Made by a program: the position numbers and the translations under genes. Below are positions 45,172-61,713 of a stretch of DNA of 64,000 bases, in pieces (positions within the stretch are counted from its first letter, which is position 1; every line of letters starts with the position of its first letter). The DNA lies in assembly GCA_964636705.1 (NCBI GenBank), contig CAZWUJ010000013.1, positions 25,574 through 89,573 on the forward strand, written 5' to 3'. Under the pieces are notes generated by a model. The model was not told the DNA's origin. It did not search any database and saw nothing but the letters and a program-made list of their open reading frames with translations. This DNA comes from an uncultured Vicinamibacteraceae bacterium (GTDB lineage Bacteria; Acidobacteriota; Vicinamibacteria; Vicinamibacterales; UBA8438).

Positions 45172-45272
45172 CGGCGTCGCGCGTTCACAATCAAGGCGGC
45201 TGCCAAGCTCAACCGGATCGTGCACGAAGTCGGGGCCCGCGCCAACCCTCGTCAAACAACGCGAACAAGTCA

Positions 45273-45684
45273 GCACGGAATCCCGGGCGCTGGCGAGAGC
45301 CGCAAGGGCCTGCGCCCTGGTCACTGACGGGAATTGGTCGAGGAACTCTTCAAGCGACTCGCCGCCCTCCAGGTAATCGAACAGCGTCCGGGCCGGCACC
45401 CGAGTACCACGAAATACTGGCGTGCCACCGGAAATCTCCGGGTCGCTGTGAACGATCGACTCCGAGACAGTCGGTACGTCGGCCAGCTCCCCGCCGGCGG
45501 CGAACGCAAGACAGGCGCGAATGTCCTCGCGTTCCAGGTCGGGGAAGTCCCGCAGAATGTCGCCCTCGGATATGCCGGACGCCAGGTAGTCGAGCACGTC
45601 GGAGACCGTCATGCGCAAGCCGCGGATGCAGGGCTCATCGCCGCGCTTTCCGGGCTCAATCGTGATCCGGTCCAGGTGCGCCAT
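45273..45684 (-). pseudogene. Tandem DUF433-DUF433 ORF that has lost its stop codon
   Basis: 'ITIEPGKRGDEPCIRGLRMTVSDVLDYLASGISEGDILRDFPDLEREDIRACLAFAA' is followed by 'DPEISGGTPVFRGTRVPARTLFDYLEGGESLEEFLDQFPSVTRAQALAALA'. The frame then runs antisense through the GNAT and PLP genes to 43225. The paralogous remnant at 52180 keeps the stop that is lost here through a 2-nt length difference. Confidence 0.55.
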
Positions 45685-45699
45685 CGGCTCGGCCTACGG

Positions 45700-45895
45700 A
45701 TTCCCATGCTCGACTCTGGAGTCCAGATGCTTGACTTCGTGTTCCAGGACCGCCTTGACCTGCCTCTACGGTTGCGCCTTCCGCCAGGTTCGCGAACAGG
45801 CTCGATACGGGCACCCGGCTGTCCTTGAATACCCACGCGCCGCTGAGCCTTCCCGGTACGCTCTCCACCGCAGGGCACGTTGTCCAATCCGCCAT
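45700..45895 (-). pseudogene. DUF433-like gene with internal deletion and frameshift
   Basis: 'SGAWVFKDSRVPVSSLFANLAEGATVE' is in one frame and the C-terminal 'VKAVLEHEVKHLDSRVEHGNP*' is in another. Confidence 0.5.
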
Positions 45896-46132
45896 GTCGT
45901 TACCTCTCGAACCGGAAGCCGGTCATGCACATGCTCGCCCGCCATCGAACGATACGCGAAATAGCAGGCAGCCCGGCACTCTGGTCCAGTGAACGCCCAG
46001 GCCGCACTGATCCTGCCGAGGTTTCGTTGCGATCCGGAACTGCGTCACTCAGGGTCGATGGTCGTCGCGGTAGGCTCCTTCCCCGCTGTTTGCTCTGCTG
46101 TGCCGTCCTGAGACGCGACGCGGCGCGGCTCA

Positions 46133-47449: not shown

Positions 47450-50243
47450 CCTCCATCACCCGGCAGATCTCTTCCCGCATCGCTGCGTCCTGCAGGGATC
47501 CCTTCTGGATGACCCGGCACTGCCCGTGAACAAAGTCCAGAGCGTGCAACATCTCGGCGTCGCCGTTCACCACGATGTTGGGGTTGTGCGTCACGACGAT
47601 GATTTGCCGTCGGACCTTGTTCTCCCGGATCTGCCGCACGATCAGGTCATAGATCAGGTGGTTGTCCAGATCGTCCTCAGGCTGATCCAGCACGAGCGGC
47701 TCGCTGCCATGTGCGAGGAGGAAGGCCAGCATCGCGGCTGAACGCTGGCCGGCCGATGCCTGGGTGATGGGGCGAAAGTCCTGCCCATCACCCGCCCGGC
47801 TGTATTCAACGCTCAGGCCGTCCTCGGGGAACCAGGTCAGGAGGTTGTCGAGCAACTCCGGCTTTCGCTCTGACTCCCGCGCGAGATGGTTGTTGAAGTG
47901 GCCGCCGAAGTCGCCGTTGCCTTTGCACGCGCGCGTCAGCCGGTCCTTGAGCGTCGCGATGCGCTGCCCGAGCTCCGTCGCGCGTTGCGAGGGATCGTCG
48001 GGCAGCTTCTTGAGGAGATCCGCCACGATGCCGCCCGTCGGTCGGTCGTTCTCCATGACGAGGATGTCGCCCGTGAACCGATCGTCCAGGACATCGAGGG
48101 CCTCACGCAGCGAACGTTCGATAGCGCGTGGATCGTTGCCGTACATCACGCTGCGGATTCGCACGAAGTCGTTCTGAGACAGTGTCTGCTCCAGGAACTC
48201 ATCCCGGGCGCGACTCACTTCGCGGCGCGCTGCCTCGACTCTCCCCCACTGCAGACGCATCCGGTCCATCAGTTGGTTGCGTTCTTCGCCCATTGACTCC
48301 AGGCGCTTCGTCTCGCTGTCGAGGAGCTGTCGTTCCTGCGCCAGACGACCATACTCACTCGGGTCAGCAACACCTTCCGCACGCAGCGCATCCACGAGGT
48401 TGTTGTAGGCATCGCTCGCTTGCTGCGCAGCCACTTGCCATGCGCTCTCGTTCAAATCCCTGCGTCGTGCCGCTACAGTCTCGCGCAGCTCTTGCGCACT
48501 GCGCCGCATATTCTCGGTGGTGTTGCGCACCGCGGTCGCGAGGCCTTCCACGATCTCGAGCACGCGCCGCTCTTCGTCCACGCTCGTATCGAGCAGATCG
48601 TCGGGCAGGTCCTCAGGCTGCAGCCCTGCGGCAGTTGCTTCGACGCGATCGGCGATAGCGGTCGCCCCACCAAGCTGACGCTCGACCTCCGCGTGCTGAC
48701 GCCGACGGCGACCGTAGGTCGTCAGGACAGTGGAATGCCCGGCCTCCTCGAAACGCTTCAACTTGCGTTCGACGTCCTGCTGACGGACAGCGACGTTGTT
48801 TCGCTGGCCCAGCATTCCTTCTAGTTCGCGGATCTTGGCCCGCGATGCGAGAAAAGCGTCTCGCGCCGCGTTCAGGTTCTCTCGGTGCGCGTCCACGCCC
48901 GCCGCCTGGTCGATCAAGTGCATCAACGCCTGCTGGTTCTCCCCCGAGAGCGCGGCGATCTGCCCCTGGCTGAACAGCCGGAGCGGGAACCGATCCGGTG
49001 TGACGCCCTGAACGGACGAGGGCTTCCAGCCGTCCTCCTGCTGCTCTTCTACCATCACGTCGTTCCCGCCGCCGCTCCATTCGATGCGGTGTCGCACGCC
49101 GTCTCGCATCACGGTCCATCGGATCTTCGTCGCTGTCTCCAATCCTCCTCTGTCCATACGGTGTGTTGGCACGCGATTGAACCGCTCAAAGGTCCGGCGA
49201 GGTTCACTGGCTTCGTCCAGATTCATCAACTCCGGCTCCCGTCGTGCGACGAGCCGTAGTGTATGAAGGACCGTGGACTTGCCTGTACCGCGCCCGCCCA
49301 CCAACGCATTGAGCCACGGGGTGAATGCGAACGTAGCCGGATTGCCGTGACCCATGTACCGCGCGCCTTCGATTTCGATCATTTCAACGAAATGCTCCGG
49401 CAGAACCCACGGGGCGAATGGCTGTGACTCGTCGCTACGTCGAATCGAAAAGCCGTCGCCGTCCAGCAGTGCGAGCCGAAGCCCTCCCAACGACGGCGCC
49501 GCCATCTTCACCCACGTGTAGTGCGATCCGGGAAAGCAAGTCCCGTCAACGCCGGTAGGGTGGTGCGAGTCTGACCCCAGCACCTCCGCCCAGGCGAGCT
49601 TCCGCTGACGATACAGATCTGGCTTCGCGGACCCGCGATCGAGGACCTCCATGGCGAACAGCCCCGGTGTGTCGAGCAATGGCATGAGCACGTTTCCCTG
49701 AAGTTTCCACGCACCCGAGGGTCGGTCGACGTGCGCGAGAATCGGTATGCCCCCCGCCTTGGTAATCGCCTCGGTGACGCCTCGCGGGTCGGCCTCGGCC
49801 ACCGTGTCGCACGCGCCCCGTGTTCCCCGATATCCGACGTCACCGAGCAACGTCGCTATATCGGCAGAAGTCCTGTCCATGTCCAGTATCGCCAGCACGT
49901 GAGTCCCGGTGCTCGCCGTGATCTCCACTCCAGGAAATAGACGCAACGGTCGGAAATCCGGGTGATTCTTGGTCTCCAGTTCGCGGAGTGCATTCTTGAG
50001 CCTGTCGATCCAGTCTCCGGAGTTGTGGTCCGTGACCGCCACGCAATCGATGCCCGCCCGCATGAAGGCGAGCAACCATTCCTCCGGCGAGATCTTGCGA
50101 ACTGCGGTTTGTCCCGCACCCTTGCCGTAGTCGCTGGACGCGGGCGTGTGGGCGTGGAGATCGAACTTCCACCATCGGGCCCCTGGGTAGCACCAGTTCC
50201 GACCGCGATCGGCTTGCGAAGACGGGCTGGAGTTCCCAGTCAT
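47388..50243 (-). CDS. PHP-domain phosphoesterase fused to an SMC/Rad50-like ABC ATPase with a long coiled coil
   Basis: PHP motifs 'FDLHAHTP', 'VTDHN', 'GVEI' and 'ILAHVD'. Walker A 'GGRGTGKST', then about 280 aa rich in heptad-like E/R/L. Signature 'SAGQRS', Walker B 'LVLDQPEDDLD' and 'VVTHNPN'. Confidence 0.8.
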   Translation of the reverse strand: MTGNSSPSSQADRGRNWCYPGARWWKFDLHAHTPASSDYGKGAGQTAVRKISPEEWLLAFMRAGIDCVAVTDHNSGDWIDRLKNALRELETKNHPDFRPLRLFPGVEITASTGTHVLAILDMDRTSADIATLLGDVGYRGTRGACDTVAEADPRGVTEAITKAGGIPILAHVDRPSGAWKLQGNVLMPLLDTPGLFAMEVLDRGSAKPDLYRQRKLAWAEVLGSDSHHPTGVDGTCFPGSHYTWVKMAAPSLGGLRLALLDGDGFSIRRSDESQPFAPWVLPEHFVEMIEIEGARYMGHGNPATFAFTPWLNALVGGRGTGKSTVLHTLRLVARREPELMNLDEASEPRRTFERFNRVPTHRMDRGGLETATKIRWTVMRDGVRHRIEWSGGGNDVMVEEQQEDGWKPSSVQGVTPDRFPLRLFSQGQIAALSGENQQALMHLIDQAAGVDAHRENLNAARDAFLASRAKIRELEGMLGQRNNVAVRQQDVERKLKRFEEAGHSTVLTTYGRRRRQHAEVERQLGGATAIADRVEATAAGLQPEDLPDDLLDTSVDEERRVLEIVEGLATAVRNTTENMRRSAQELRETVAARRRDLNESAWQVAAQQASDAYNNLVDALRAEGVADPSEYGRLAQERQLLDSETKRLESMGEERNQLMDRMRLQWGRVEAARREVSRARDEFLEQTLSQNDFVRIRSVMYGNDPRAIERSLREALDVLDDRFTGDILVMENDRPTGGIVADLLKKLPDDPSQRATELGQRIATLKDRLTRACKGNGDFGGHFNNHLARESERKPELLDNLLTWFPEDGLSVEYSRAGDGQDFRPITQASAGQRSAAMLAFLLAHGSEPLVLDQPEDDLDNHLIYDLIVRQIRENKVRRQIIVVTHNPNIVVNGDAEMLHALDFVHGQCRVIQKGSLQDAAMREEICRVMEGGREAFGRRYRRLGREPAGV

Positions 50244-50299
50244 CCGCTCCCCAAGCTCTCGCGGCCCGCGCCCGCAACAAGCTCTCCGCGCATCGCCAT
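50240..50299 (-). other. Possible 19-codon leader ORF overlapping the PHP-ATPase start (ATGA)
   Basis: ATGGCGATGCGC...GGATGA encodes 'MAMRGELVAGAGRESLGSG'. The first 11 nt and 22 upstream nt are shared with the small ORF at 57444. Confidence 0.3.
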
Positions 50300-50321
50300 G
50301 TCACAACGATAGCCGATGCCG

Positions 50322-50597
50322 TTATCTTGAGCGCCTTGCAAGGGATCGTTCGCGCTGAGTAGGCGTGAATCGCAACAGTGCACTCCGCCTCATGCAAACG
50401 ACGACCTTCTCGTCTCGATAGTCATCACCGGCTGCGGCCAGAGCATCCCGTCGATTGAACTCGAGCGCCTCAGCAAGAGCATCGGCAAGGCTCTGCCGCA
50501 ATTCCTCGTGGGTGCGTTCCTGGCAGTTGACGCTCGGCTCTTCGTTGACGCACGTCTCCTCGGTCTGTCCCTCCACGTGCAGCAGCAACCGGCTCAC
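50322..50597 (-). pseudogene. Chimeric ORF made of a DUF4276 N-terminal stub joined to a HicB/UPF0150-like fragment
   Basis: 'SRLLLHVEGQTEETCVNE' is the DUF4276 start. It is followed directly by 'CQERTHEELRQSLADALAEALEF', which resembles a HicB-type fold. Confidence 0.35.
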
Positions 50598-51080
50598 GGC
50601 ACGGGCCCGTTCTCGTGATCTTCACGCATTGACCGTCCGCCGAACTGGTTCTTCTCCCACAGTTGACCGAGGCTGTAGTCCTCCAGCCACGTCTCCAGCG
50701 CGGCGCCGTCAAGCCGGGTGAATTGTGTCTGCCCTCCCGCACGTTTAGCCACGAGGACGTCCTCCGGTCGGAAGTGATCCAGTAGCAGCGGCGACTGGGT
50801 CGCCTACACGACCTGGGTCCTGAACCGAAGCGAACCATCGGAAAGGGACGATGCAGCGAAGTAAGCGTCCGACGTTTGATGTTTCCATTCGAGACGAATC
50901 GTGTCTTCGTTGAGGGCCAGCGGCTCCAGGCGGAAATCATCGAAGAAGGGCGCAACAAGCTGGACGGTCCGCCGGATCAGAGCGTAGCAATCGGCGTGCT
51001 TTAGGGACAGGGATTGGCGTCAGAGGCAAGCGCTCGATGCACTTGATGCTCCTGAATCCTTCTACGGTGATGCAGTCGGC
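50594..51080 (-). pseudogene. Fragments of an AAA_15/21-type ATPase, the usual DUF4276 partner
   Basis: Pieces lie in different frames: 'ITVEGFRSIKCIERLPL', 'FRLEPLALNEDTIRLEWKH...SLSDGSLRF' and 'SPLLLDHFRPEDVLVAKRAGGQTQFTRLD...WLEDYSLGQLWEKNQFGGR'. There is an internal TAG, and Walker A is missing. Confidence 0.5.
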
Positions 51081-51115
51081 ACCGTCGCTGCGGACCTCCC
51101 CGGTGGTCGGGTAAG

Positions 51116-51263
51116 AGCGGTTGCGCCGTTCGTAGGCGACCTGGACGGGGCTCTGCGCGGACCGGTCCATCACCGACCGGAGCTCGGCCGTCGGGGTGTT
51201 CTTGCGCGACGCCTCCTCGTGCTTCAGAGTCGCGACGATCTTGTGGGACGGCCTCTTGGGCAT
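51116..51263 (-). pseudogene. N-terminal stub of a type III-like DNA methyltransferase
   Basis: 'MPKRPSHKIVATLKHEEASRKNTPTAELRSVMDRSAQSPVQVAYERRNR' resembles the conserved N-terminus of adenine-specific mod methylases. Homology stops after about 49 codons. Confidence 0.45.
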
Positions 51264-51283
51264 GCGGGCAGGACCACGGACGC

Positions 51284-51499
51284 TCAGACGGCCCTATAGG
51301 AGCGTACGGGCAAGGCGCGGGTTTCGACCGTGGCCAGATCGTGCTTCGCGGCGGCGCCGTCGATATCGAACCCCACGACGTTTCCCTCGGCGTCGAGATC
51401 GACGTTGATCCCGGCGGACACTTCACGTGTTTCCACGCCAGGGCCGGCCTTGAGCTCGAAGTACAGACTGTCGGTTTCGGGGTAGTAGTGAAGCTTCAT
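51284..51499 (-). CDS. DUF2283-domain protein
   Basis: 'MKLHYYPETDSLYFELKAGPGVETREVSAGINVDLDAEGNVVGFDIDGAA'. Confidence 0.75.
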   Translation of the reverse strand: MKLHYYPETDSLYFELKAGPGVETREVSAGINVDLDAEGNVVGFDIDGAAAKHDLATVETRALPVRSYRAV

Positions 51500-51572
51500 G
51501 ACGCATCCCTTCGAAAGCCACGGTCGAAGCACGCATTGTGGATTGTCTCAAAGTCGTCCAGGGTCCGACTGA

Positions 51573-52154
51573 TGGCCGCGCCTGTGCTTCAGAAGCCCCG
51601 CCGTCTCCGGCGTCACCTTCCAGGAGTTCGGATCCGGAAGCTCGCGCCACCGATCCACGCGCGGCCTGCGTGGCCTCGTCGAAGACCAAGCCGCGCCCGC
51701 CGACGTCCCGCTCATCCTCGCGCTCATCCGGGAGCTGGCCGAGTACGAGAAGCTCCTGGACGCGGTCGTAGCGACAGAGGAACTGATCCATGTCGCGCTC
51801 TTCAGCGACACGCCGCACGCCGAGGCGGTAGTCGCCCGCGTCGGCGACGAATCGGTCGGTTTCGCCCTCTACTTCCGCACCTTCTCGACCTTCCTCGCGC
51901 GCCCCGGCCTGTACCTGGAACACCTCTGCGGCCGCCCGGCGCACCGCGGCAACGGCTACGGCCGGCGGCTGCTCGTGCACCTTGCCCGCATCGCCGTCGA
52001 CAGCGGCTGCGGCCGGTTCGAGTGGTCCGTCCTTGACTGGAACGAGCTGGCGCAGGCTACCTACCGGCGGGCTGGCGCGGTGCCGATGGAGGAGTGGACT
52101 GTCTGGCGGCTTACCGGGGAGCCGTTGCGGAAACTGGCCGACGAGGCGGATTGA
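51573..52154 (+). pseudogene. GNAT paralog without a canonical start codon
   Basis: From 51702 to the stop at 52152-54 it is colinear with the GNAT at 44719-45171 (constant offset of 6983 nt). The open frame upstream has no ATG or GTG. Motif A is altered ('LEHLCGRPAHRG' versus 'LEDLYVRPAHRG'). Confidence 0.55.
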
Positions 52155-52179
52155 GGGCGAGCCTGGTGGCAGACTCTCG

Positions 52180-52331
52180 TCAAGCAGAGCGCGCACGAGT
52201 CAGGACGGAGTCCCGGGCGCTGGCGAGAACCGCAAGGGCCTGCGCCCTGGTCACCGACGGGAATTGGTCGAGGAACTCTTCGAGCGACTCGCCGCCCTCC
52301 AGGTAATCGAACAGCGTCCGGGCCGGCACCG
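52180..52331 (-). pseudogene. 3' remnant of a DUF433 gene plus the first codons of a DUF5615-like partner
   Basis: 'PARTLFDYLEGGESLEELLDQFPSVTRAQALAVLASARDSVLTRARSA*'. The overlapping GTG at 52196 opens 'VRALLDESLPPGS', which then runs into antisense GNAT. Confidence 0.45.
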
Positions 52332-52489
52332 GCTCGCTCTCAACGTGGCCAGCCTCTCTCGGATGTCCCGAGCCACTTCATCGACTTCGCGCGCCACTCG
52401 GGGCTCGCGTCCAAGCTCGCGCTCCAGAGCCGTAGTCAGGGGCAACAGGAGATCGGCGGCCGGCGACGCCTGAATTGGAACGCAACTCC

Positions 52490-52775
52490 GGAAGCGCAAG
52501 GACGGCCTCGACGTCGCGCTCGCACGCTGACTGATCACCGAGACCGATGAGCGCTTTGGCCCGAATCAGGTGGCCCCGCAGTCGCTGTGCCGGCGATCCT
52601 CTGTCCCGTCGTTCGACCAACAGTCCGGCCGTTTCGGCGGCCTTCTCGTACTGCCGGTTCTCGATCTCAATCTCTGCTCGCCTCAGCAGCGCGTCCTTGA
52701 CCTTCACACCGAGCGCTGGCGACGCGCTCTCTCCGAAGCGGCGGACCACCTCGTCGTAGGCCCTCAGCGCCTTCT
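52490..52775 (-). pseudogene. TPR-like protein fragment
   Basis: 'ALRAYDEVVRRFGESASPALGVKVKDALLRRAEIEIENRQYEKAAETAGLLVER...LIRAKALIGLGDQSACERDVEAVLAL' has no start and is fused out of frame to the HicB fragment. Confidence 0.3.
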
Positions 52776-52789
52776 TCCTGCATTGCGAC

Positions 52790-53044
52790 GTAGAGCGCCC
52801 CCTTGACCGCGACGTGAACCGGGACCGCAACAAGCACCTGTCCCGACTCCAAAGGACTCGGTGCGGGAATCTCAGCGCGGTCCACGATGCGTGCGCCGAT
52901 GGTTTCCGCAAGACAATCGGCGGCCATCGCAAGGGCATCGTCTCGATCCTCGCCCTGCGTGATTGCATCCGGCAGGTCCGGGAACGTTACCGTATAGCGA
53001 CCGTCGAGTTCGCGTTTCAGATGTGCCGGGTAAGCGAAATCCAT
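52790..53044 (-). pseudogene. HicB-family antitoxin, N-terminal domain only
   Basis: 'YPAHLKRELDGRYTVTFPDLPDAITQGEDRDDALAMAADCLAETIGARIVDRAEIPAPS' is present. The expected C-terminal DNA-binding part is replaced by unrelated sequence. Confidence 0.5.
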
Positions 53045-53087
53045 GTCGGTTTACCAATGGCCACGATTCACGCCGGCGAAAGCGATC

Positions 53088-53391
53088 TCACCCGCGCCGC
53101 CGGTGTGCATCATTCATCAATATGGTACGTATCCGTACTACATCAAGCGGCGGGGACTTGCGGCAACGGTACTGAGCGCGAATGGACTCGATGACCCCGC
53201 AGCGCCTGCGAAGGACTGAGCGGGTCCGCGCGGATGGCTCGGGTGACCTGTCAGTAGCGCTCCTGAAGCACGTGGACCGACACGGCCAGGCCGCCTTCCC
53301 GCAGTAGGCGCTACGCCCTGCGCCGCTTCTCGGCATCCTCGGCGGACGGACTCGCGGCGTAGATCAGGACGTTGATGTCAACGAACCGAAC
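53088..53391 (-). pseudogene. VapC-type PIN toxin pseudogene
   Basis: 'VRFVDINVLIYAASPSAEDAEKRRRA*RLLREGGLAVSVHVLQERY*' has in-frame stops at 53311-13 (TAG) and 53251-53 (TGA), then a frameshift. The first codon is GTT, which is not a start codon. Confidence 0.6.
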
Positions 53392-53674
53392 GCCGGTCGT
53401 GCAGAGCTTCGCGACTGAGATTGTCGGCCGCCCTGAATCCGCTACGGGTCGCGCAGATATCTTCGAAGATCTCGTCCAACAACCGCCCTCGGCGTTCGCC
53501 CTCGGTCTCCGCGTCCGGCCCGCGCGCACCGCTTTCGTCGGAACCGTCCCGAACGAGACGTTCGAGGAAGTCCCGCACGAGTGCCGACACGGAGGTGTCC
53601 AACTCCGCAGCGCGAATGCGGGACTGCCGATACGTGTCGTCGTCCACCGACACCGTGATGTTCCTCATCGGCAA
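53378..53674 (-). CDS. Ribbon-helix-helix (CopG/VapB-like) antitoxin
   Basis: 'MRNITVSVDDDTYRQSRIRAAELDTSVSALVRDFLERLV'. Its stop overlaps the beginning of the PIN pseudogene. Confidence 0.65.
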   Translation of the reverse strand: MPMRNITVSVDDDTYRQSRIRAAELDTSVSALVRDFLERLVRDGSDESGARGPDAETEGERRGRLLDEIFEDICATRSGFRAADNLSREALHDRRSVR

Positions 53675-53787
53675 AGCCTCACAGTTTCAGCGTATCGCAG
53701 GAGCGGAGCAGCACATCTGCCTGCCTGCCTGGGCGGACCGAGAATGCCGCGGGGCGACCTCGGCGGCCCGAGAGGTCGCGGGCAGCT

Positions 53788-53976
53788 TCATACCGCGATG
53801 GCCTCCTCCCGAACGAGAAGCAACCGGATCACGCGCGGCGCCCTGTCCTTGTCGAAGTGACAGCGCACGGCGTCTCTCGCCATCTCCTTCAGATCCTCCC
53901 AGTTCTCTCCCTGCGTGCAGATGCTGTAGCCGAGCGCCCTCCTGTCAGTCATTGGCCACTCCGTTGCGCTTGTCAT
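53788..53976 (-). CDS. Small HicB/UPF0150-like protein, N-terminally short
   Basis: 'GYSICTQGENWEDLKEMARDAVRCHFDKDRAPRVIRLLLVREEAIAV' resembles the small HicB-like family but lacks about 15 N-terminal residues. Confidence 0.45.
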   Translation of the reverse strand: MTSATEWPMTDRRALGYSICTQGENWEDLKEMARDAVRCHFDKDRAPRVIRLLLVREEAIAV

Positions 53977-54013
53977 CGCGCCGAGTCAGACCCACCGGCC
54001 ATTCGCGCAGCGT

Positions 54014-55102
54014 CTACAAGGCAAAGCAGAAGTCGTGCTCCTCGAAGCGCGACACCTTCGAGCCGCGAAACACGTTCGCCTGCGTCTTGCCGACTTCGGT
54101 CGTCACGCCATCGTCGACGAGTTGAACGTCGCGCCCCAGACCAAGAGTGAGCGACTGCAACAAGCCGGCGCGAAGTTCCAACTTCTGCAAGCGGCGTCCG
54201 CCGATTCGAATCACTAGCCGTGCGCGTGCCGCCAGCAGAGGCGCCAGCCCCCGCATCGACGCCTGGATGAACGTCCAGTAGTTCTCCGGGTTGTAGTGCC
54301 GGTCATCCCCGCGACCGCGGGGCACGAGCGGCTCGCCGCCCAGAAACCAGAGGCGCAGCCACTGGTCCTCCCGGTAGTTCGTGGTGTCGAGGTACGGCGG
54401 CGAGGTGATTACGTCGGTGACACGGCCCTCAAGGGAGGGGAACGCTGCAGAAACCCGGCGAGCGTCCGCTTGAACGACCACAGCGGAACCATCCGGAGGT
54501 CGGGTCCGAAAGCGGTAATCGAGCATCCTTTCGAGGATTTCGAAGACATCCCGCGGCGGAGGCTTGTACTCCCGCTCAGTCCACCACCGAACCGAGTAGT
54601 CGGGTTTGGTGCTGATCGTTCGCGGCATGCGGTTACTGAAGCAGTTGGGTGATCGGTGGGATTCGCCGTGCAGCGCCCCGAGGCATAGCGCCGCAATGAA
54701 ACGATCGTCCTTCCGATTGCGCCAGTCCAGGACGGAACGCAGATAGCGCACCTGCAACAGCGTTTCCCGATGGAAGCAGAGTTCGAAGAACCGACCGAGA
54801 TCCCCCTGCCACGCGCCGTCGTTCGGCTCGCCGCATCCGCGACGAAGCTCGCCCAGGCGCGCCCGGGCGCCCGACAGCGCGGGCGGATCACCCTTCGCGC
54901 CGGAGATACACACTGCCACTGGATTCAGGTCCGCGCCGGCCGACTCCCGTCCCTGCAACAGCGCCTGAAACACGGTGGTTCCTCGCCCGCTGTACGGGTC
55001 AAAGACGACCCCGTCGTGCGGACTCGCGACAAGGTGCTTCTCGACGAACGTCTCAGGGAACATCGCGAAGTACGGACAGATCGAATGGAATCTATGCCTC
55101 AT
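54014..55102 (-). CDS. DNA methyltransferase (N6-A/N4-C type, motif I before motif IV)
   Basis: AdoMet motif 'VFDPYSGRGTTVFQAL' near the N-terminus and catalytic 'VITSPPYLD' about 190 residues later. The start overlaps the upstream stop (ATGA). Confidence 0.75.
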   Translation of the reverse strand: MRHRFHSICPYFAMFPETFVEKHLVASPHDGVVFDPYSGRGTTVFQALLQGRESAGADLNPVAVCISGAKGDPPALSGARARLGELRRGCGEPNDGAWQGDLGRFFELCFHRETLLQVRYLRSVLDWRNRKDDRFIAALCLGALHGESHRSPNCFSNRMPRTISTKPDYSVRWWTEREYKPPPRDVFEILERMLDYRFRTRPPDGSAVVVQADARRVSAAFPSLEGRVTDVITSPPYLDTTNYREDQWLRLWFLGGEPLVPRGRGDDRHYNPENYWTFIQASMRGLAPLLAARARLVIRIGGRRLQKLELRAGLLQSLTLGLGRDVQLVDDGVTTEVGKTQANVFRGSKVSRFEEHDFCFAL

Positions 55103-56097
55103 GCCGCCGCTCCCGTCCGGCTGCGATAGTCCGAGACCCAGCGCGCGGCCTCCGCCAGCCGATCGTACCCTTCGATCGCAACGCCTGCGTCAACCAACCC
55201 CGCGGCCTCCTCCACGCGACGCGGAACCCGCAACCGGTGCAGCACGTTGCCCATCACGCGAACATCGTCCACGAACTGATTGTCGGCCGTTGCGAACGGT
55301 ACAACCATATAGGGGATGAATTCGGTCACCGGCTGCGTCCCGAACCATCGGCTCTTGAACGCACCCAGATGCCCCTTCAGCGACTTCTCCCTTGCGTTCC
55401 GGCCCGTCGCGACCTGCGCGGCGGCGAGCGGGAAGCCCGGCAGCCGATCGAGGTGCGGGCGGGCGGCAAAGACATCGACCTGATCGTCCTTCGGCAGCCG
55501 GGGCACGCCGGCCTGCGCCTCAACGCGACCGTCGCCGAGCTGCAGCCAGATCTGCTCCAGTTTGTGGAGAAACGGAGAACGGTCCGGCCGCGGAAACCCG
55601 AATGACCACGCATGCCCCTGCACCTCCGCCGCCATGGCCGCAGTTGCGAAGAACTGGAAGTACTCCCGCAGACGTGGCACCTCGGCATCGCCTGGATGCA
55701 GGTCCGAACCCTCGAGTATCGGCGTCACTGCCCGCAGATTGGACAGCACGAGGCTGAGCACATACGCGGTCTGCCCGAACGACTCCTCATTCAACTCGCA
55801 GGTCAGAACATCGCCGCGACCATCGAGCACGAACGGATACGCCGTGCCGAGTGCGTCCCGCCGCGTCTGGATCCGGGACGCGGCGCTGCATACGATTTCC
55901 TCCTCGCCGTCGAACATCTCGGCCTGCACGTCGACGTGATCTTCGGCTGCGCCGAGAGAGGCTGCGTTCGCGAGGTCGGACGTTCGAGCTGTACTGTCGG
56001 CGGCGAAGAAGGCGGTGAGCTCAAGATAGTCGGCGGCCAGATCGACGTCGATCGAAGAGCCGGTTACCGCGTCCGTGGGCAGGTAAAGGGCGAGCAT
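55099..56097 (-). CDS. Unknown 332-aa protein, possible nuclease-fold effector
   Basis: No family recognised. 'PKDDQVDVFAARPH...AAAQVATGRNAREK' loosely recalls a D...(D/E/Q)xK nuclease core, but the lysine is not evident. Coupled to both neighbours by overlapping start and stop codons. Confidence 0.6.
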   Translation of the reverse strand: MLALYLPTDAVTGSSIDVDLAADYLELTAFFAADSTARTSDLANAASLGAAEDHVDVQAEMFDGEEEIVCSAASRIQTRRDALGTAYPFVLDGRGDVLTCELNEESFGQTAYVLSLVLSNLRAVTPILEGSDLHPGDAEVPRLREYFQFFATAAMAAEVQGHAWSFGFPRPDRSPFLHKLEQIWLQLGDGRVEAQAGVPRLPKDDQVDVFAARPHLDRLPGFPLAAAQVATGRNAREKSLKGHLGAFKSRWFGTQPVTEFIPYMVVPFATADNQFVDDVRVMGNVLHRLRVPRRVEEAAGLVDAGVAIEGYDRLAEAARWVSDYRSRTGAAA

Positions 56098-57245
56098 CAG
56101 TCCGACGAACGTGCGTGCCGGCGCTTCTTCGCCATGCGCGCATGCACGGCTTCGGCCGTCTCCTTGATGTCCTCCGCGATGTCAAGGAGTGACTGGTCCC
56201 GCCCGTCGTAGGCTCGCAGCGAGCCGGCTGCGTCCCCGATAGCCTCCCGCGCGCGGAGCAGCGACGCCGTGAACCGCGTGTCCACGGATTCTGTGCTTGC
56301 GTGCGCCTCGTCCAGATCGCCCGTCTGCTTCAGGACGTGTAGCGACTCGGCGTGGACGAGCACTTCACCGAGACGCTTGATGTCAGGGTTCTGCTTTTGG
56401 ACGACCGGCGCCACGTCGTCGGCCTTCGAGCCGTATATCCAGACCAGCACCTGCTTCAGCCGAGGGAGTCTGTCCCGCGGGACCTGATCCGGCGTCGGAT
56501 CATGGCGCGACCACGCGGCTTCCAGACCCAGGTAGTCCATGTACTGAGAGCGCGAGAGCGCCGTGTACAGATGTGAGAAACCGAACTTCGGAGGGTATCG
56601 GTCCTCGATATCGAACAGCCCTTGCTCTCGCGCCTGGTCCAGCACGTAGATGGCCGACACCATGCGTTTGATCGTGTCGTGCCTATCGCCGATGGCCTGC
56701 GCTATCTGTTCCAGGCCGATCCCATTCTCGCGGCCTTTCTGGTACCAGTCCGCCGCAAACCGAGCCTTCGCGTAGGCGTCCCATTTCTGCGGACCGTTGA
56801 TGTGCTTGAAGCCGATGAAGGCGCGAGCCCGTTGCCGGCTTGCGACGGGATACACGGAAACCTCGTCGAGCGTCTGCTGGACCCCGTCGTCGATCTCCGG
56901 AACGGTGATACGCGTGCTCTCAGCGGCTGCGATCCTTCGCACCAGGGCCGGTTCCCGCAGGAGACGCAGCGTTGCAAGCCGCCGGTTGCCCTCCAAGACA
57001 ATCAGCGCGTCATCGTCGGCGTCGTCTTCCATCACGACGAGGGGCTCGATGTCGAGGTAGCCGTTGGCGGAGATTGACTGCAGGAGCTCGTCGAGCTCCG
57101 CCGACCGATAGAGCCGCGCGATGATCCATTCGTCGGACGCATCCGTTGCCTCGCCGACCAGCCGCGGATTCCCCCGGTCCAGCCGCAGCCGCTCGACCGG
57201 AACCTTCGCGGTCGTCTCAAGTACCATGCTCACCCCGCTGTGCAC
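56097..57245 (-). CDS. ParB/Srx N-terminal-domain protein
   Basis: 'RLDRGNPRL', 'NGYLDIEPLVV' and 'LIVLEGNRRLATLRLL' (the ParB GxxR box), followed by a helical C-terminal region. An alternative start lies at 57227. Confidence 0.75.
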   Translation of the reverse strand: MHSGVSMVLETTAKVPVERLRLDRGNPRLVGEATDASDEWIIARLYRSAELDELLQSISANGYLDIEPLVVMEDDADDDALIVLEGNRRLATLRLLREPALVRRIAAAESTRITVPEIDDGVQQTLDEVSVYPVASRQRARAFIGFKHINGPQKWDAYAKARFAADWYQKGRENGIGLEQIAQAIGDRHDTIKRMVSAIYVLDQAREQGLFDIEDRYPPKFGFSHLYTALSRSQYMDYLGLEAAWSRHDPTPDQVPRDRLPRLKQVLVWIYGSKADDVAPVVQKQNPDIKRLGEVLVHAESLHVLKQTGDLDEAHASTESVDTRFTASLLRAREAIGDAAGSLRAYDGRDQSLLDIAEDIKETAEAVHARMAKKRRHARSSD

Positions 57246-57444
57246 CGTCGCCTGACGGTGGTTCCTCCGCTTCCTGCCCGCGCGCGACCCGCCGCGGTGG
57301 GTAGCTCACGTACTCGATACCGGACTCGGCCTCCCGTTTCCGGATGCGTCGGAAGATCTCCTTGACGTCGTTGCCGCACTCCGCAGCGAACTTGTCGCGT
57401 ATCGCAAGCACTTCAGCCACGACAGGATCATCCCGCATCGCCAT
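57217..57444 (-). CDS. Small hypothetical protein (75 aa) heading the ParB operon
   Basis: 'MAMRDDPVVAEVLAIRDKFAAECGNDVKEIFRRIRKREAESGIEYVSYPPRRV'. It overlaps the ParB-like start. Confidence 0.5.
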   Translation of the reverse strand: MAMRDDPVVAEVLAIRDKFAAECGNDVKEIFRRIRKREAESGIEYVSYPPRRVARGQEAEEPPSGDGAQRGEHGT

Positions 57445-57479
57445 GTCACAAAGATAGCCGATGCCGGCGGCCGCTCGGA

Positions 57480-57730
57480 CTCGGAACACCTTCATCACCT
57501 CGTCGCCGAGGTGATTGATGACCTGGACGGCGATGCGGCCCGACTCGGGGCGGCCGAACGGACGCCAGATGTCGCTGTGGAGCGAACGACCACGCGTCGG
57601 CGTTGATCTCGGCCTTGAGCGCCTTGTAGGGGTCGTTCGCAGCGAGGAAGTAGGCGTACCGGACGACGAAGCTCTCCTCGTCGTAGTCGGTGTCGCTGAA
57701 CCAAAACGCGATGCCGTCGATGTGGGCGGC
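57480..57730 (-). pseudogene. C-terminal remnant of a type III-like DNA methyltransferase
   Basis: 'IDGIAFWFSDTDYDEESFVVRYAYFLAANDPYKALKAEINADAWS', then after a frameshift 'RPFGRPESGRIAVQVINHLGDEVMKVFRV'. This is the typical C-terminus of mod-type methylases. Confidence 0.5.
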
Positions 57731-57744
57731 TAGCGTCGACCTGC

Positions 57745-57885
57745 CGCGAGGCGGAAGAGACCCGTTCTACGAGCGATTGAATCGTGTTCTTGACGAGGCG
57801 GGCCTCGACGACTTTGTCGAGAGCGCGTGCGCGAAGTTCTACGCGGGCGGGGTGGGCCGTCCGAGTCTGGCTCGGGCCGTGAATC
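57745..57885 (+). mobile_element. IS5/IS1182-type transposase N-terminal fragment (InsH-N/DUF772-like)
   Basis: 'RDPFYERLNRVLDEAGLDDFVESACAKFYAGGVGRPSLA'. No catalytic domain and no recognisable inverted repeats. Confidence 0.5.
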
Positions 57886-58371
57886 AGTTGAAGGAGGCCT
57901 TACAAGCTGAGGTCCTGCGCCGCGTTCTTGAAGCCCCGCCGGCATTCCTGGAGCAAATCGTCGTAGGTCTTCTGAATCAAAATGGGCTACGGCGGAGGTG
58001 ATGCTTCCATGGGCCGCGTCACCGGCGGCGCCGGCGACGGTGGGATCGACGGAACGATCCGGGAGGACAAGCTGGGACTGGATGAAGTCTACGTTCAGGC
58101 AAAGAAGTACGCCGACGGAAAGACCGTCGGTGAAGCCGAACTGCGGAACTTTGCGGGGGCCATCGACGCAGCGGGCACGACCAAGGGCGTATTCGTCACT
58201 ACGTCCAGATTCACGGACGCCGCGAAGCACTGCGTGGCGCGCAGTCCGAAGCGGATCGTCTTGATCGACGGGGAGGAACTGGCGCGTCTCATGGTCGAGC
58301 ACGGCGTCGGCGTGCGGCTCAGGGATCGTTACGAGGTCAAGAGGATCGACGAGGACTACTTCGACATGTGA
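57886..58371 (+). pseudogene. Mrr-family restriction endonuclease, N-terminally truncated and frameshifted
   Basis: 'PPAFLEQIVVGLL' is in one frame and 'MGYGGG...GDGGIDGTIREDKLGLDEVYVQAKKY...KGVFVTTSRFT...IVLIDGEELARLMVEHGVGV' is in another. The Mrr N-terminal winged-helix is absent. Confidence 0.65.
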
Positions 58372-58396
58372 TCCGGAACCAAGCCGGTCGTTCTCT

Positions 58397-59035
58397 CTAC
58401 CACAAGTCCTTCCGCAGCTGCCTCACGAGCCTGAACGTCCGACGGGCCGGCCGCGCCTTGAACATCTCAACGCCACAACTCTCACGAAGGGCGGATTCCA
58501 TCTCGTTGCGAGAAATGTCAGATTCGGCTCCTACGATTACTTGCTTGAGCGCAAGTTCGTCGGACAACCGGACGAAGTAGTGCTCGCCATCTCTCTTGCA
58601 CTTATGAAGCTGAACAACTGCGCGCCGTTCTTTTTCGTACCTCCAGTGCCAGAACTTCTTCAGAAACAGGCCCTGGGCGAAGTCCTGAGTTAACATTTCC
58701 CTCCGCGGAGGCGGGAATTCTCGCTTAGGAACATACACGACCGGGTGCACAAAGTCTTCGGGAACGTCGAATCCCAGGCAGACACCCTTGTGTTTGTCGG
58801 CATAGTGAGCCCACATCAGTGGGCTTCGCCACGTTTCGCTAAAGCAGACCAGTCCGTGGGTTCGTCCAAACCGGTGCTTTGTGTTCCGCAAGACCTGTCG
58901 AACACTCGGGTCGGAGAGTTTCACTGCAAGGAACTCAAAGGGGTCGTTCAGGTTCTCAATACACGAGACCTTCAGGCGTCTCTTTCGTAGATTCTCCACA
59001 CCGTAGTGCTTGCAGACGAAATGGTAAACGCGCAT
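58397..59035 (-). CDS. DUF2971-family protein
   Basis: 'VYHF...ENLNDPFEF', 'LVCFSETWRSPLMWAHYADKHKGVCLGF'. GGAGGA lies upstream of the ATG. The gene sits in a visibly lower-GC patch. Confidence 0.7.
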   Translation of the reverse strand: MRVYHFVCKHYGVENLRKRRLKVSCIENLNDPFEFLAVKLSDPSVRQVLRNTKHRFGRTHGLVCFSETWRSPLMWAHYADKHKGVCLGFDVPEDFVHPVVYVPKREFPPPRREMLTQDFAQGLFLKKFWHWRYEKERRAVVQLHKCKRDGEHYFVRLSDELALKQVIVGAESDISRNEMESALRESCGVEMFKARPARRTFRLVRQLRKDLW

Positions 59036-59319
59036 GAGTCATGTCCTCCCCGCTTCGCCACCCCGAGCCGAGGCACCCACTGGCTCTGCTGACTCAACGC
59101 ACGGGCGATCACATGCGCTCGACCAACCAACGCCTGGAACTGTGCCTTCAGCACGTCCTTCAAGTCCGGCTCCATCGTGTAGACCGTCCGATTGATCATG
59201 GACCGGGCCGACGAAACGCTGAACCTCGACGTCGACCCGGTGCAGGTGCGCCGGTGCGTAGCAAGACTGGCGATGGAGTAGCATGAGAGACGAACGGGAT
59301 GGGCATCGAGGGAGAAACA

Positions 59320-59559
59320 ATGACGAAGAGGAACACAGCCAAGTATCATTTCAAGGACGGCAATTTCATCGTGCACACTGGAATCACGACTGACCTTGAG
59401 AGGCGTGAAGCTGATCACCAACGAGAGTCAGGTGTGGACAGCGGCCACATCACGAAGGTTGGCCGCCTCACGACTCCTGAAGCAGCGAAAGAGTGGGAGC
59501 GAGAGCAACGAGACGCCGGAAAGCCAACCGAAGGGTACCGAACACGTCCCAGAAAATGA
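59320..59559 (+). CDS. Small GIY-YIG-like protein
   Basis: 'KYHFKDGNFIVHTGITTDLERREADH' resembles the GIY...YIG...R...E core. GGGAGA lies upstream of ATG 59320. Confidence 0.4.
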   Translation: MTKRNTAKYHFKDGNFIVHTGITTDLERREADHQRESGVDSGHITKVGRLTTPEAAKEWEREQRDAGKPTEGYRTRPRK

Positions 59560-59565
59560 CCTGCG

Positions 59566-61713
59566 CTAATCACCGACTCGAAGACGGTGTCGCTCATCAG
59601 CGGCATTCCCCGCACGCAGATCGTCCAGAAACTCCGAGCAAGGATCGACGCCGGTCACCAGTAGCCGGTCGCGTGCACGGGTGCACGCGACGTAGAGCAG
59701 GTGTCGTTCGGTGCCGTAAACCTCCTCGAGATCGGCGTCATCGCCAACGCGTTCGATCCGGGTCTGTAGCGGAATGACCTCGTCGTCGCAGGCGGCTACC
59801 GCGACCGCCCTGAACTCCAGCCCCTTGGCGAGGTGCATCGTGCCGACCGCGACCGATCCGGACACGCCGCCGGAACCGCCGTCGAGCCGCACAGCCCGCA
59901 TATCCGCCGCCTGCACAGCGGAGAGCGCTCGCTCGATCTGCTCCGACGACCTGACGAAGACGCCGATAGCTTGCGGCGCGTAGCCCTCGTCCCGTCGTGC
60001 TCGAAGCCAGTCCGCGATGGCCTCCGTCTCGTCCTCCGGCGAATCGAACGTCCTGACTTCGGGTGCCGGTCCGTTGAACACCGAGACCGTCGCTCCTCGA
60101 TGCTCCGCATCGCCGTCGACGTCTGCCAGCTCGGCCGGCAAGAGGCGGTCGGCCTGACGCCGGATCTGATGCGACGTACGGTAGTTGATCCGCAGCGTAT
60201 GGGATCGCCCGCGCACGTCGACGCCGAGCGCCCTCCAGGAGAACGGCGTCTGGAAGATCCGCTGTCCGAGATCACCGGCAAAGAACAAGCTGTTCGGCCG
60301 GCTCCCACCGAGGGCCGCCAGAAACCGCAACTCTGGGACGCCGACATCCTGCGCCTCATCGATCACGCAGAAGTCGAACGGGGGATGCGCTGCCTCTGTC
60401 ATCTTCGCCGCCACCCGCGCGAACATGCCGGGCTCCGTCAGTTTCCCGTGTTCGGCGAGCGCAGACCGGACCCGCAAGAAGATCGACCAGAGCAACTCCC
60501 GCTGCTTCTCGGCCAAGCGGGTCTTGCGGCCGAGCCGCTGCACGTCGCGATAGTCCTCCCAACTCGCGAGCTGCCAGGCGTCGACCACAACGCTCCATTC
60601 CGTCCAGAGAAAGTGCGCACCGAAACGATGGCCTTCGACCTCGGCTGCCGCTTGCCGGAGCAGTGCCCGTGTCTCTTCGTCCGCCGCCAAGTTGAGGCGG
60701 CCGACATTCGCCGTGTAGAGACGCCGACCGATGTCGCTCATCGAATGCACTTCGAGACGCTCGGCGATCTTCGGCTCGTTCCCGATGAGGCGCCTGAGAC
60801 GCGTCCGTAACGCGCCGGCCAGCGCATCCGAGAAGGTCGCGAGCAGCACGCGGCTCTCCGGATGTGCGCGCGCCAAATGCACTGCCCGATGGAGCGCCAC
60901 GATGGTCTTGCCGGTGCCGGCCGAACCCGAGAGACGAGCCGGGCCGGTGTAGTCCCGTTCGACGAGTTGTCGCTGGGCAGGGTGCAGGAAGACGGTCCAC
61001 TTCTCCCACGGGTAGTCCAGCGCGCGCTCCAGCGATTCCACGTCCGCCATCACCCGGAAGCGGCGCTGCGCATCGGGATGTGCAAACGGATCCGCGCCCG
61101 CTACGGCAGGCGCCGGACGGTCAGGCGCACCGCCGGTCGCAAGCTGCAGGAGCGCCTCGGCAGCCTCGCCCGGCAGGTGATCGGCAAGGTCGAGCAGCGT
61201 GTCCTCGGTCGCCGCCCGCACGTCACCGAGCCACTCGACCGGCACGCCGTAGCCCAGTAGATCGTCGTCCGACGCGCCGGCGAAGATTGCCGTACCCGAC
61301 GCCGTTGGTCCGCCTGCCGCCGCGCCCCGACTGGGCGCCGGGAGGTTCACCTCCACATACCGCGGTACCGGAATCTCACGTACCGTCTCACGGATCTCGA
61401 CGAGTTGGGCGGCGCCTGTCGTCGGATGCCGTTCCAGCCGCCGCCGTTCGGCCCACTGATAGGCGGCGTCGTGATGGTCGACGTAGCAGAGCAGGAAGCT
61501 GGAGGCTGTCCGGTGGACGATCAGTCGGATGTCGCGACTGACCCGAGCGGACCAGAAGTCCTTGTCCTTCGCGCGGTCGACTTGGTGCAGCTTCAGCCCC
61601 GGATGCGCCGGGTTCATCTGCAGGTCGAAAGCCGCGGTCTTGACCGCCTTCTGCTCGTCGCCGGTCAGCTTGGCGAGGCTGTCGGTGAAGGTGTCGGCGA
61701 TGCGGAACTGCAT
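59566..61713 (-). CDS. UvrD/Rep-like SF1 helicase with a RelE/ParE-like N-terminal domain
   Basis: N-terminus 'FWSARVSRDIRLIVHRTASSFLLCYVDHHDAAYQWA'. Helicase motifs 'LSGSAGTGKT', 'CVIDEAQD', 'FFAGDLGQRIF', 'NYRTS', 'TMHLAKGLEFRAV' and 'LLYVACTRARDRL'. The start overlaps the S8 peptidase stop (TGATG). Confidence 0.8.
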   Translation of the reverse strand: MQFRIADTFTDSLAKLTGDEQKAVKTAAFDLQMNPAHPGLKLHQVDRAKDKDFWSARVSRDIRLIVHRTASSFLLCYVDHHDAAYQWAERRRLERHPTTGAAQLVEIRETVREIPVPRYVEVNLPAPSRGAAAGGPTASGTAIFAGASDDDLLGYGVPVEWLGDVRAATEDTLLDLADHLPGEAAEALLQLATGGAPDRPAPAVAGADPFAHPDAQRRFRVMADVESLERALDYPWEKWTVFLHPAQRQLVERDYTGPARLSGSAGTGKTIVALHRAVHLARAHPESRVLLATFSDALAGALRTRLRRLIGNEPKIAERLEVHSMSDIGRRLYTANVGRLNLAADEETRALLRQAAAEVEGHRFGAHFLWTEWSVVVDAWQLASWEDYRDVQRLGRKTRLAEKQRELLWSIFLRVRSALAEHGKLTEPGMFARVAAKMTEAAHPPFDFCVIDEAQDVGVPELRFLAALGGSRPNSLFFAGDLGQRIFQTPFSWRALGVDVRGRSHTLRINYRTSHQIRRQADRLLPAELADVDGDAEHRGATVSVFNGPAPEVRTFDSPEDETEAIADWLRARRDEGYAPQAIGVFVRSSEQIERALSAVQAADMRAVRLDGGSGGVSGSVAVGTMHLAKGLEFRAVAVAACDDEVIPLQTRIERVGDDADLEEVYGTERHLLYVACTRARDRLLVTGVDPCSEFLDDLRAGNAADERHRLRVGD

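Follow-up and report, generated by a model that had tools for sequence, protein, structure and literature searches.

In a 64,000-nucleotide (nt) window of contig CAZWUJ010000013.1, from an uncultured Vicinamibacteraceae bacterium, three overlapping minus-strand genes encode a ParB-like protein, an uncharacterised protein designated here as X, and a DNA methyltransferase. On balance, and with moderate confidence, we read these genes as an intact, horizontally mobile, methylation-linked defence cassette of restriction-modification-like design, related to the PD-lambda-5 system and carrying a different effector. Four lines of evidence point to a restriction-modification-like architecture: the invariant pairing of the ParB-like protein with X, the coupled and co-evolving methyltransferase, the recruitment of three methyltransferase classes, and the location of these genes in defence islands and phage hotspots.

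Layout and linkage of the cassette

The list of open reading frames (ORFs) places four of them, all on the minus strand, between positions 54014 and 57498, with lengths in amino acids (aa):

54014-55102, minus strand: DNA methyltransferase gene, 362 aa
55099-56097, minus strand: protein X gene, 332 aa, uncharacterised family
56097-57227, minus strand: ParB-like gene, 376 aa from the ATG at 57227; the ORF reaches a GTG at 57245 (382 aa)
57217-57444, minus strand: small ORF, 75 aa from the ATG at 57444; listed as 57217-57498, 93 aa

The stop codon of the ParB-like gene overlaps the start of X in the sequence TGATG (56095-56099), the stop of X overlaps the methyltransferase start in an ATGA (55099-55102), and the 3' end of the small ORF overlaps the ParB-like start by 11 nt. 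A preliminary description of this DNA had presented the four ORFs as one translationally coupled operon. Strand, coordinates and both stop-start overlaps are as described there, but the four-gene unit does not hold. Only 4 of 80 related loci have the small ORF together with the cassette (in L011 at a different position), so the conserved unit consists of three genes; this rarity, together with a family of just 7 clusters (72-90 aa), rules out the four-gene reading. The small ORF matched nothing in any of the profile libraries searched (Pfam, NCBIfam, PADLOC, PHROGs), and it probably starts at the ATG at 57444, its few homologues being 72-90 aa long. It is a lineage-specific passenger, that is, a real gene and no conserved component of the cassette.

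The length of 382 aa previously given for the ParB-like protein also needs correction. The 376-aa product is identical to the called protein P0270 and its homologues measure about 375-377 aa, which makes the ATG at 57227 the most likely start and the GTG at 57245 an unlikely one. With 816 database relatives for X and 2285 for the ParB-like protein, and ratios of non-synonymous to synonymous substitution (dN/dS) of 0.10-0.27 across all three genes, the cassette genes are real and not chance ORFs of GC-rich DNA. The ratios were taken against loci L010, L016 and L022 only, the values for X against L011 and L017 being wrong-frame artefacts. All three genes are under purifying selection, the methyltransferase showing ratios of about 0.10-0.11.

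Linkage was assessed in 80 loci bearing X, taken as one genome per species from many phyla (Acidobacteriota, Proteobacteria, Cyanobacteria, Chloroflexota, Spirochaetia, Nitrospirales and others), mostly metagenome-assembled, with gene presence scored by tblastn. Whether the genes occur together beyond this genome had been raised as a check on the idea of a module, and they do. X is immediately preceded by the ParB-like gene in 80/80 loci, with extrapolated junctions of -11 to +7 nt. A full-length cognate methyltransferase gene lies directly downstream of X in 57-58 of the 80, and 56 of 57 X-methyltransferase junctions measure -13 to -1 nt; overall, the gene junctions fall within about 13 nt. 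From locus to locus, the three proteins vary together in percent identity (r = 0.88-0.94), indicating that the three genes evolve as one unit. The pairing extends to three remote X relatives with 28-32% identity, each preceded directly by a ParB-like gene with the NPR and GNRR motifs; downstream of one of them, at a distance of a few genes and oppositely oriented, is a D12-class methyltransferase gene.

At the nucleotide level, homology with the closest loci starts at the ParB-like start (in L010, at the small ORF) and stops within about 20 nt of the methyltransferase stop. Homology bounded so tightly by the genes marks the cassette as compact and clearly mobile. An X relative was present on 2 of 72,556 plasmid records, and no relative was found among IMG/VR viral contigs with the close alignment. 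A scan for sigma-70 promoters found none, and the single terminator-like site was within chance expectation. A search of the operon's upstream region in 81 sequences found no conserved operator; it recovered only the tail of a neighbouring 943-aa methyltransferase gene, in about 10 loci.

The three proteins and their relatives

The ParB-like protein is built of a ParB/Srx-type N-domain with the NPR and GNRR motifs, a helix-turn-helix stretch (LEQIAQAIGDRHDTIKRMVSAIYVL) and a helical C-terminal region. The GxxR box, already noticed in the preliminary description, lies in the stretch LEGNRRLATLRLL; its GNRR aligns with the GERR box of Helicobacter pylori ParB/Spo0J (4umk) and is invariant across distant relatives. 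From the helices of the model, LEQIAQAIGDRHDTIKRMVSAIYVL appears to follow the ParB helix-turn-helix pattern. The AlphaFold2 (AF2) model (predicted local distance difference test score, pLDDT, 83) returned ParB, KorB and Noc structures as its top 22 Foldseek matches in the PDB (E 2e-6 to 9e-5, probability 1.00), over 227-266 columns covering the N-domain and the following helical region. Several of these structures were solved with cytidine diphosphate or CTPγS, an analogue of cytidine triphosphate (CTP). Sulfiredoxin comes next, with E ~0.04, and Pfam ParB_N reaches E 0.025, under the family cutoff. Judging by the predicted N-domain fold and the GxxR box, the protein belongs to the ParB/Srx superfamily, and it would be expected to bind a nucleoside triphosphate (NTP).

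Compared with the ParB/KorB/Noc CTP clamps, the arrangement of N-domain and helix-turn-helix is similar, and the GxxR arginines and 'NPR' are retained. On the other hand, the Glu of GERR is replaced by Asn, the C-terminal region is distinct and sequence similarity is marginal. Moreover, no ParA-type partner turned up among the neighbours scanned, and the 81 upstream sequences contain no conserved parS-like site; sites elsewhere were not searched.

Protein X had been reported as matching nothing recognisable, and this description stands: no Pfam, NCBIfam or PADLOC model matches it. Nor is it a housekeeping family, a possibility that had also been raised; none of 64 diverse members matches a relevant Pfam family, Mrr_cat (PF04471) included. 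Profiles of close and of diverse members found no relative among PDB sequences. The family comprises 452 representatives at 50% identity, and it is matched by phrog_14650 (6e-23), which has no annotated function in PHROGs, although tblastn of X against phage records gave no match.

The AF2 model of X (pLDDT 80.6; predicted template modelling score, pTM, 0.86) has an N-terminal half of helix-strand-helix-helix-strand-strand order, resembling a winged helix, and a C-terminal half with an alpha/beta core. Foldseek matches are weak but consistent, pointing to Mrr-like nucleases. BFVD gives first an Mrr-like domain protein (E 4.8e-3, probability 0.98, 215 columns) and next a Type IV Mrr-domain protein; the leading PDB matches are VC1899 and MspJI (E 0.02-0.07), ahead of forkhead and other winged-helix domains. 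Over 64 sequences with 18-69% identity, the invariant residues are D23, E26, R79, Y87, P88, Y112, L116, D204, D208, Q228 and R288, and K238 is at least 90% conserved. D204, D208, Q228 and K238 fall in a helix-strand-strand-strand-helix-strand core of the model and are candidate catalytic residues.

The consensus 'KDxGIDVIAW...GQxASGxNWxxKS' recalls the Mrr_cat motif. In a direct hhalign comparison of X with the Mrr_cat fragment of the window, 'KDxGIDVI' falls on 'GDGGIDGT' in the expected register, over 11 columns and below significance. The resemblance to Mrr and MspJI thus lies in the predicted layout, a winged-helix-like topology followed by an alpha/beta nuclease-like core, and in 'KDxGIDVIAW', which is similar to the Mrr_cat 'GDGGIDG'. 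It differs in that the Mrr_cat profile matches 0/64 X members, that X lacks the lysine of (D/E/Q)xK, and that Mrr is a stand-alone, modification-dependent enzyme. We consider X a likely but unproven nuclease, Mrr-like or PD-(D/E)xK-like in its modelled fold.

The methyltransferase had been described as looking intact, and the homologues agree. It carries an S-adenosylmethionine (AdoMet) motif, 'FDPYSGRGTT', near its N-terminus and a catalytic 'TSPPY' at about residue 233. PF01555 (N6_N4_Mtase) matches residues 11-63 to model positions 162-215 (3e-10); because these residues fit the C-terminal AdoMet region of the Pfam model, the AdoMet motif precedes TSPPY in a permuted order. FDPxxGRGT and TSPPY are kept in 56 of 57 homologues, none of which has internal stops, and with both motifs intact the enzyme looks active. 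SPPY is typical of N4-cytosine methyltransferases, which suggests that the product is N4-methylcytosine. In PADLOC, MTase_II (PDLC03325) matches residues 12-313 with 1.1e-24. The best matches are MTase_II models, and PD-Lambda-5_B is absent from the best 25 of 35.

PD-lambda-5 is an experimentally validated two-gene anti-phage system of an E. coli prophage (Vassallo et al. 2022, PMC9519451), placed by a preprint among HEPN-containing systems (10.1101/2024.10.26.620412); in our reading, the HEPN domain would correspond to the C-terminal part of PD-Lambda-5_A. Many PD-Lambda-5_A models match the first ~160 residues of our ParB-like protein, the best (6e-23) aligning residues 12-170 with model positions ~5-165. 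This ParB-type N-domain is homologous in the two systems, with NPR and GNRR invariant in both. Residues D17, N20, P21, R22, G80, N81, R82, R83, R131, H142, G145, W149 and K154 are invariant from the cassette through the phage versions described below to true PD-Lambda-5_A. Both systems are linked to methyltransferases and lie in defence islands or prophage hotspots, and sister triads of the cassette carry a PD-Lambda-5_B (D12/Dam-like) methyltransferase.

The differences begin beyond the N-domain. PD-Lambda-5_A proteins have 440-500 aa and another C-terminal part, as against 376 aa here, and in BLASTP of our protein against a true PD-Lambda-5_A (L069, 466 aa) the N-domain alone aligns. That L069 protein matches PD-Lambda-5_A over positions 1-462 of 463 (4e-156) and true PD-Lambda-5_B scores 8e-120; such pairs adjoin the cassette pair in L069 and L070. 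The effector of the cassette is instead a separate 332-aa protein, and its methyltransferase is of the N6_N4 class (PF01555) with SPPY, whereas that of PD-lambda-5 is D12. We also considered PD-Lambda-5_A as a fusion of the ParB-like protein with X; X and PD-Lambda-5_A share no similarity, which rules this out. By its profile matches, with neither a full-length A nor a B protein, the cassette falls outside PD-lambda-5 as PADLOC defines it.

More distant versions occur in P2-like phages, as the triads orf98/orf96/mth of Wphi and gp04-06 of vB_EcoM-12474III and in Pseudomonas phage D14A. In common with the cassette they have a ParB-like protein, 25% identical over 85-94% of its length, a remote X homologue of ~300-370 aa that overlaps it, and a DNA methyltransferase alongside. 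In two of the three phage X homologues hhalign brings the D-x3-D and Q region into register. The relationship is very distant, with hhalign probabilities for X of 14-52%, and these triads differ from the cassette in being phage-borne, the cassette's own clade not having been found in IMG/VR viral contigs, and in having a C5-cytosine methyltransferase on the opposite strand. So far as we found, they too are uncharacterised. Phrog_3694, which matches our ParB-like protein over its full length (1.5e-80), and phrog_14650 are both of 'unknown function', and RefSeq labels the Wphi-type triad 'ParB N-terminal domain-containing protein | hypothetical protein | DNA cytosine methyltransferase'. P2-like triads occupy a portal-adjacent defence hotspot, that of vB_EcoM-12474III directly adjoining the portal gene. 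Among 5426 complete E. coli genomes, 104-140 carry the Wphi-type triad, in every case chromosomally (in E. coli W, NC_017635.1, 4338703-4341873). Taken globally, homologous pairs of a ParB-like protein and X have independently recruited three classes of methyltransferase.

Two further comparisons place the cassette among known or candidate systems. PADLOC PDC-M38A gives a longer alignment of the ParB-like protein than PD-Lambda-5_A does (residues 48-354, 2.7e-18), but this 715-position candidate model is matched at positions 58-348 only, and X has no PADLOC match at all. In GmrSD, SspE, DndB and Menshen NsnA, a ParB-superfamily NTPase with a DNA-binding domain senses DNA beside a swappable effector (PMC12065111). 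The cassette is similar to GmrSD, SspE, BrxU and NsnA in placing ParB/Srx nucleotide-binding and DNA-binding domains beside a nuclease effector in a defence locus (PMC12065111, PMC12373910), and its '(D/E)GNRR' parallels their 'DGQQR'. However, the Pfam search gave neither a DUF262 (PF03235) nor a DUF1524 match, the motif of the ParB-like protein is EGNRR, and its fold is nearer to canonical ParB/KorB/Noc than to the minimal Srx. The putative nuclease of the cassette is a separate protein that looks PD-(D/E)xK-like in place of HNH/DUF1524, and modified DNA is the target of those systems, which lack their own methyltransferase.

The architecture had not been recognised as a named system. No profile library puts all three genes in one named system, and we found no paper naming the three-gene architecture in the literature on PD-lambda-5, PDC-M38 and ParB in defence, CTPases or P2 hotspots. 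PD-lambda-5 and the P2-phage triads show, on the other hand, that it is not without relatives.

The surrounding defence island

The cassette lies in a region of defence genes (45000-64000) with a GC content of 0.58-0.67, compared with ~0.70 in positions 1-45000 of the window, a drop consistent with a horizontally acquired island. Its main other features are:

47388-50243, minus strand: 951-aa ATPase gene, intact, with AAA_21 and SMC_N-type matches
50603-51001: C-terminal half of an AAA_21 gene, beside the N-terminal methyltransferase fragment
51114-51263, minus strand: first 50 codons of a 943-aa N6_N4 methyltransferase gene (tblastn)
57417-57466, no strand: one copy of a 50-nt direct repeat, spanning the small-ORF start; second copy at 50272-50321
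57478-57718, minus strand: last ~84 codons of the 943-aa N6_N4 methyltransferase gene (tblastn with the L004 protein)
57982-58371: truncated Mrr_cat gene

Genes for HicB, a FitA-like protein and DUF2283 are also present, with no partner among the ORFs scanned, and a UvrD-like helicase gene and a DUF2971 gene lie near the cassette. The cassette had been called the intact occupant among decayed restriction and toxin-antitoxin genes, which is borne out by the methyltransferase fragments, the half AAA_21 gene, the truncated Mrr_cat gene, and the HicB and FitA-like antitoxin genes lacking a toxin among those ORFs.

The two fragments of the 943-aa methyltransferase (residues 1-50 and ~860-943) lie 6 kb apart, in the wrong order, and flank the cassette. 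Together with the half AAA_21 gene, this arrangement points to recombination between two forms of a larger island. Of the 80 loci, 14 contain the gene for the 943-aa methyltransferase or a remnant; in about 10 it precedes the cassette at essentially full length, and a UvrD gene lies downstream of the cassette in 9 of the 80. A larger island of 943-aa methyltransferase, cassette and UvrD-like helicase is seen in L013, L015, L017, L018, L029, L030, L045 and L048, and also in L034, L037, L043 and L044; L004 and L048 have a ResIII helicase gene and PhdYeFM/PIN genes further upstream. In several loci the ParB-like start follows the 943-aa methyltransferase stop by ~25-60 nt, a spacing at which co-transcription is possible.

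The two copies of the 50-nt repeat are 84% identical and may be a piece of a shared leader or promoter. Each carries GTGACATGGCGATGCG on the minus strand, which at 57444 forms the ATG of the small ORF (MAMRDD...) and in the copy at 50272-50321 starts a 19-codon ORF (MAMRGELVAGAGRESLGSG). Judged from the ORF coordinates, the stop of this short ORF apparently overlaps, as ATGA, the start codon of the gene for the 951-aa AAA_21-type ATPase. The ATPase, which may be another intact defence gene of the island, has an N-terminal stretch (DLHAHTPASSDY) that looks PHP-like by eye, and its gene is adjoined by a DUF4276-like remnant at 50322-50597.

Weighing the mechanism

According to the restriction-modification-like reading, the methyltransferase would mark host DNA, maybe as N4-methylcytosine, and the ParB-like protein and X would form one two-protein restriction module directed against DNA without that mark. 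With its NTP pocket (NPR, GNRR) and helix-turn-helix, the ParB-like protein would be the DNA-engaging, nucleotide-gated subunit, and nucleotide binding by this subunit would license X, the executing nuclease. The nuclease activity of X, NTP binding by the ParB-like protein, the DNA that is attacked, the type of methylation and any anti-phage effect are what we infer from the comparisons above. A division into sensor and effector had been proposed in the preliminary description. The ParB/KorB/Noc-like fold beside weak Mrr-like matches fits that division, but strict dependency on restriction-modification does not follow from the distribution of the genes.

Several observations weigh against this reading, the most serious coming from loci without the cognate methyltransferase. 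As many as 22 of the 80 (27%) keep the pair of ParB-like protein and X without it, and in all 22 both proteins retain every conserved residue and are free of stop codons. In four of these loci the methyltransferase is reduced to an N-terminal stump, and in 8 none of the four kinds of methyltransferase searched for lies within ~6 kb. The next gene in several is a housekeeping gene (Dus, ribosome hibernation factor, SDR) or an IS481 transposase. A nuclease cutting unmarked DNA constitutively should not outlast its methyltransferase, and a strict dependency of the restriction-modification kind is therefore not established. Consequently, one of three things must hold in these loci: the nuclease is off by default and triggered, an unlinked methyltransferase protects the host, or the target is not unmethylated DNA.

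The remaining points concern the two proteins themselves. Throughout the ParB-like family, Asn replaces the catalytic Glu found in the GERR box of ParB. The position of the ExK lysine in X is not conserved (Q-x-A), a conserved Lys lying 10 residues later, and a nuclease fold for X is weakly supported, with a best Foldseek E of 5e-3 and no match to Pfam or to PDB sequences. Finally, the recognition helix of the helix-turn-helix is identical in 80/80 loci, whatever methyltransferase is adjacent, and so gives no sign of methyltransferase-matched specificity; the idea that this helix sets such specificity is unsupported.

A D12 methyltransferase lies nearby in about eleven of the 22 loci. Many D12 enzymes adjacent to pairs, including many of these, belong to neighbouring paralogous systems. 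In L063 (7019-10061) and L057, and also in L038, L074, L084 and L087, a paralogous triad adjoins a pair without a methyltransferase of its own. The triad of L063 and L057 is convergent with the pair and consists of a ParB-like protein of 379 aa, an X-like protein of 312 aa (hhalign 97% to X) and a PD-Lambda-5_B-type D12 methyltransferase. In L069 (7062-9403) and L070 (4298-6642), true PD-lambda-5 A and B genes lie directly downstream of an intact pair lacking its methyltransferase, which raises the question of whether one methyltransferase could serve related systems.

The pair-only loci lend weight to a different explanation, in which the ParB-like protein and X are a self-sufficient gated nuclease, triggered by infection or sensing DNA in a Type IV-like manner, independently of methylation. 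The methyltransferase would then be an optional accessory that, for example, fine-tunes self-protection or protects the mobile cassette. We regard this as rather unlikely, yet it accounts directly for a pair that is invariant in 80/80 loci while the methyltransferase is absent from 22 with intact partners, for the pairs found between housekeeping genes and for the four stumps beside intact pairs. Also in its favour, the best fold matches of X are to Mrr-like proteins, a Type IV family, and ParB-superfamily NTPase domains gate nucleases in GmrSD and SspE (PMC12065111). It fits poorly, however, with the ATGA coupling of X and methyltransferase in 56 of 57 loci and their co-evolution (r ~0.9), and the independent recruitment of three methyltransferase classes is hard to explain for a dispensable passenger. 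In addition, a nuclease of modified DNA would be dangerous beside its own methyltransferase.

A specific version of the restriction-modification-like reading, which we put forward only tentatively and judge improbable as it stands, makes the ParB-like protein a DNA-scanning restriction subunit. It would load on DNA as a ParB-type clamp, close on CTP or another NTP, slide, and license X on unmethylated DNA. If this were true, the cassette would represent a new class of restriction-modification system that signals along DNA by a ParB clamp and not by a helicase or translocase motor, and the pair-only loci would hold a nuclease kept off by default and released when the switch fires.

Less probable again is an ordinary Type II restriction-modification system, with X alone as the sequence-specific endonuclease, the methyltransferase as its partner and the ParB-like protein as a mere controller-like regulator or accessory DNA-binding factor. 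The active-looking methyltransferase with its match to the PADLOC Type II model would suit such a system; X has weak nuclease-like fold matches and a winged-helix-like N-terminal half that could read DNA, and the ParB-like helix-turn-helix is invariant across loci, as expected of a fixed-site binder. Controller proteins, however, have ~80-100 aa and are often dispensable, whereas the ParB-like protein has 376 aa and an NTP-pocket signature, is as conserved as X and is never absent. The upstream sequences lack a conserved operator, and loss of the methyltransferase with retention of the restriction-side pair in 27% of loci is atypical for Type II.

Very improbable is a module with no defence role that would serve the maintenance, partition or addiction of a mobile element, its ParB-like protein acting in segregation or silencing. 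In its favour, the nearest folds are the partition and silencing proteins ParB, KorB and Noc, the cassette is mobile with homology ending within ~20 nt of its genes, and restriction-modification-like modules can serve as addiction systems. Against it, the scanned neighbours include no ParA-type partner, and the cassette is chromosomal, among defence genes and nearly absent from plasmid records. The ParB-like gene is strictly paired, moreover, with genes for a nuclease-like protein and a methyltransferase, and in phages the versions occupy the accessory defence hotspot of P2 and not a partition locus (PMC9519451).

Beyond this genome, X represents a sizeable unannotated family that is always paired with a ParB-like protein. 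PD-lambda-5, the D12 sister triads, the P2-phage cassettes and the cassette described here outline a group of methyltransferase-linked systems that keep one ParB-type module and exchange both effectors (a possible HEPN, an Mrr-like protein) and methyltransferase classes (N6_N4, D12, C5). As PADLOC has no model for X and matches the ParB-like protein only partially with PD-Lambda-5_A, current defence-finding tools would probably miss the cassette. The Wphi-type triad in E. coli, including the laboratory strain E. coli W, is a convenient experimental model. If the reading proposed here is true, the biology of CTP switches would reach past chromosome segregation and gene silencing, to a ParB/KorB-like nucleotide switch at work in immunity.

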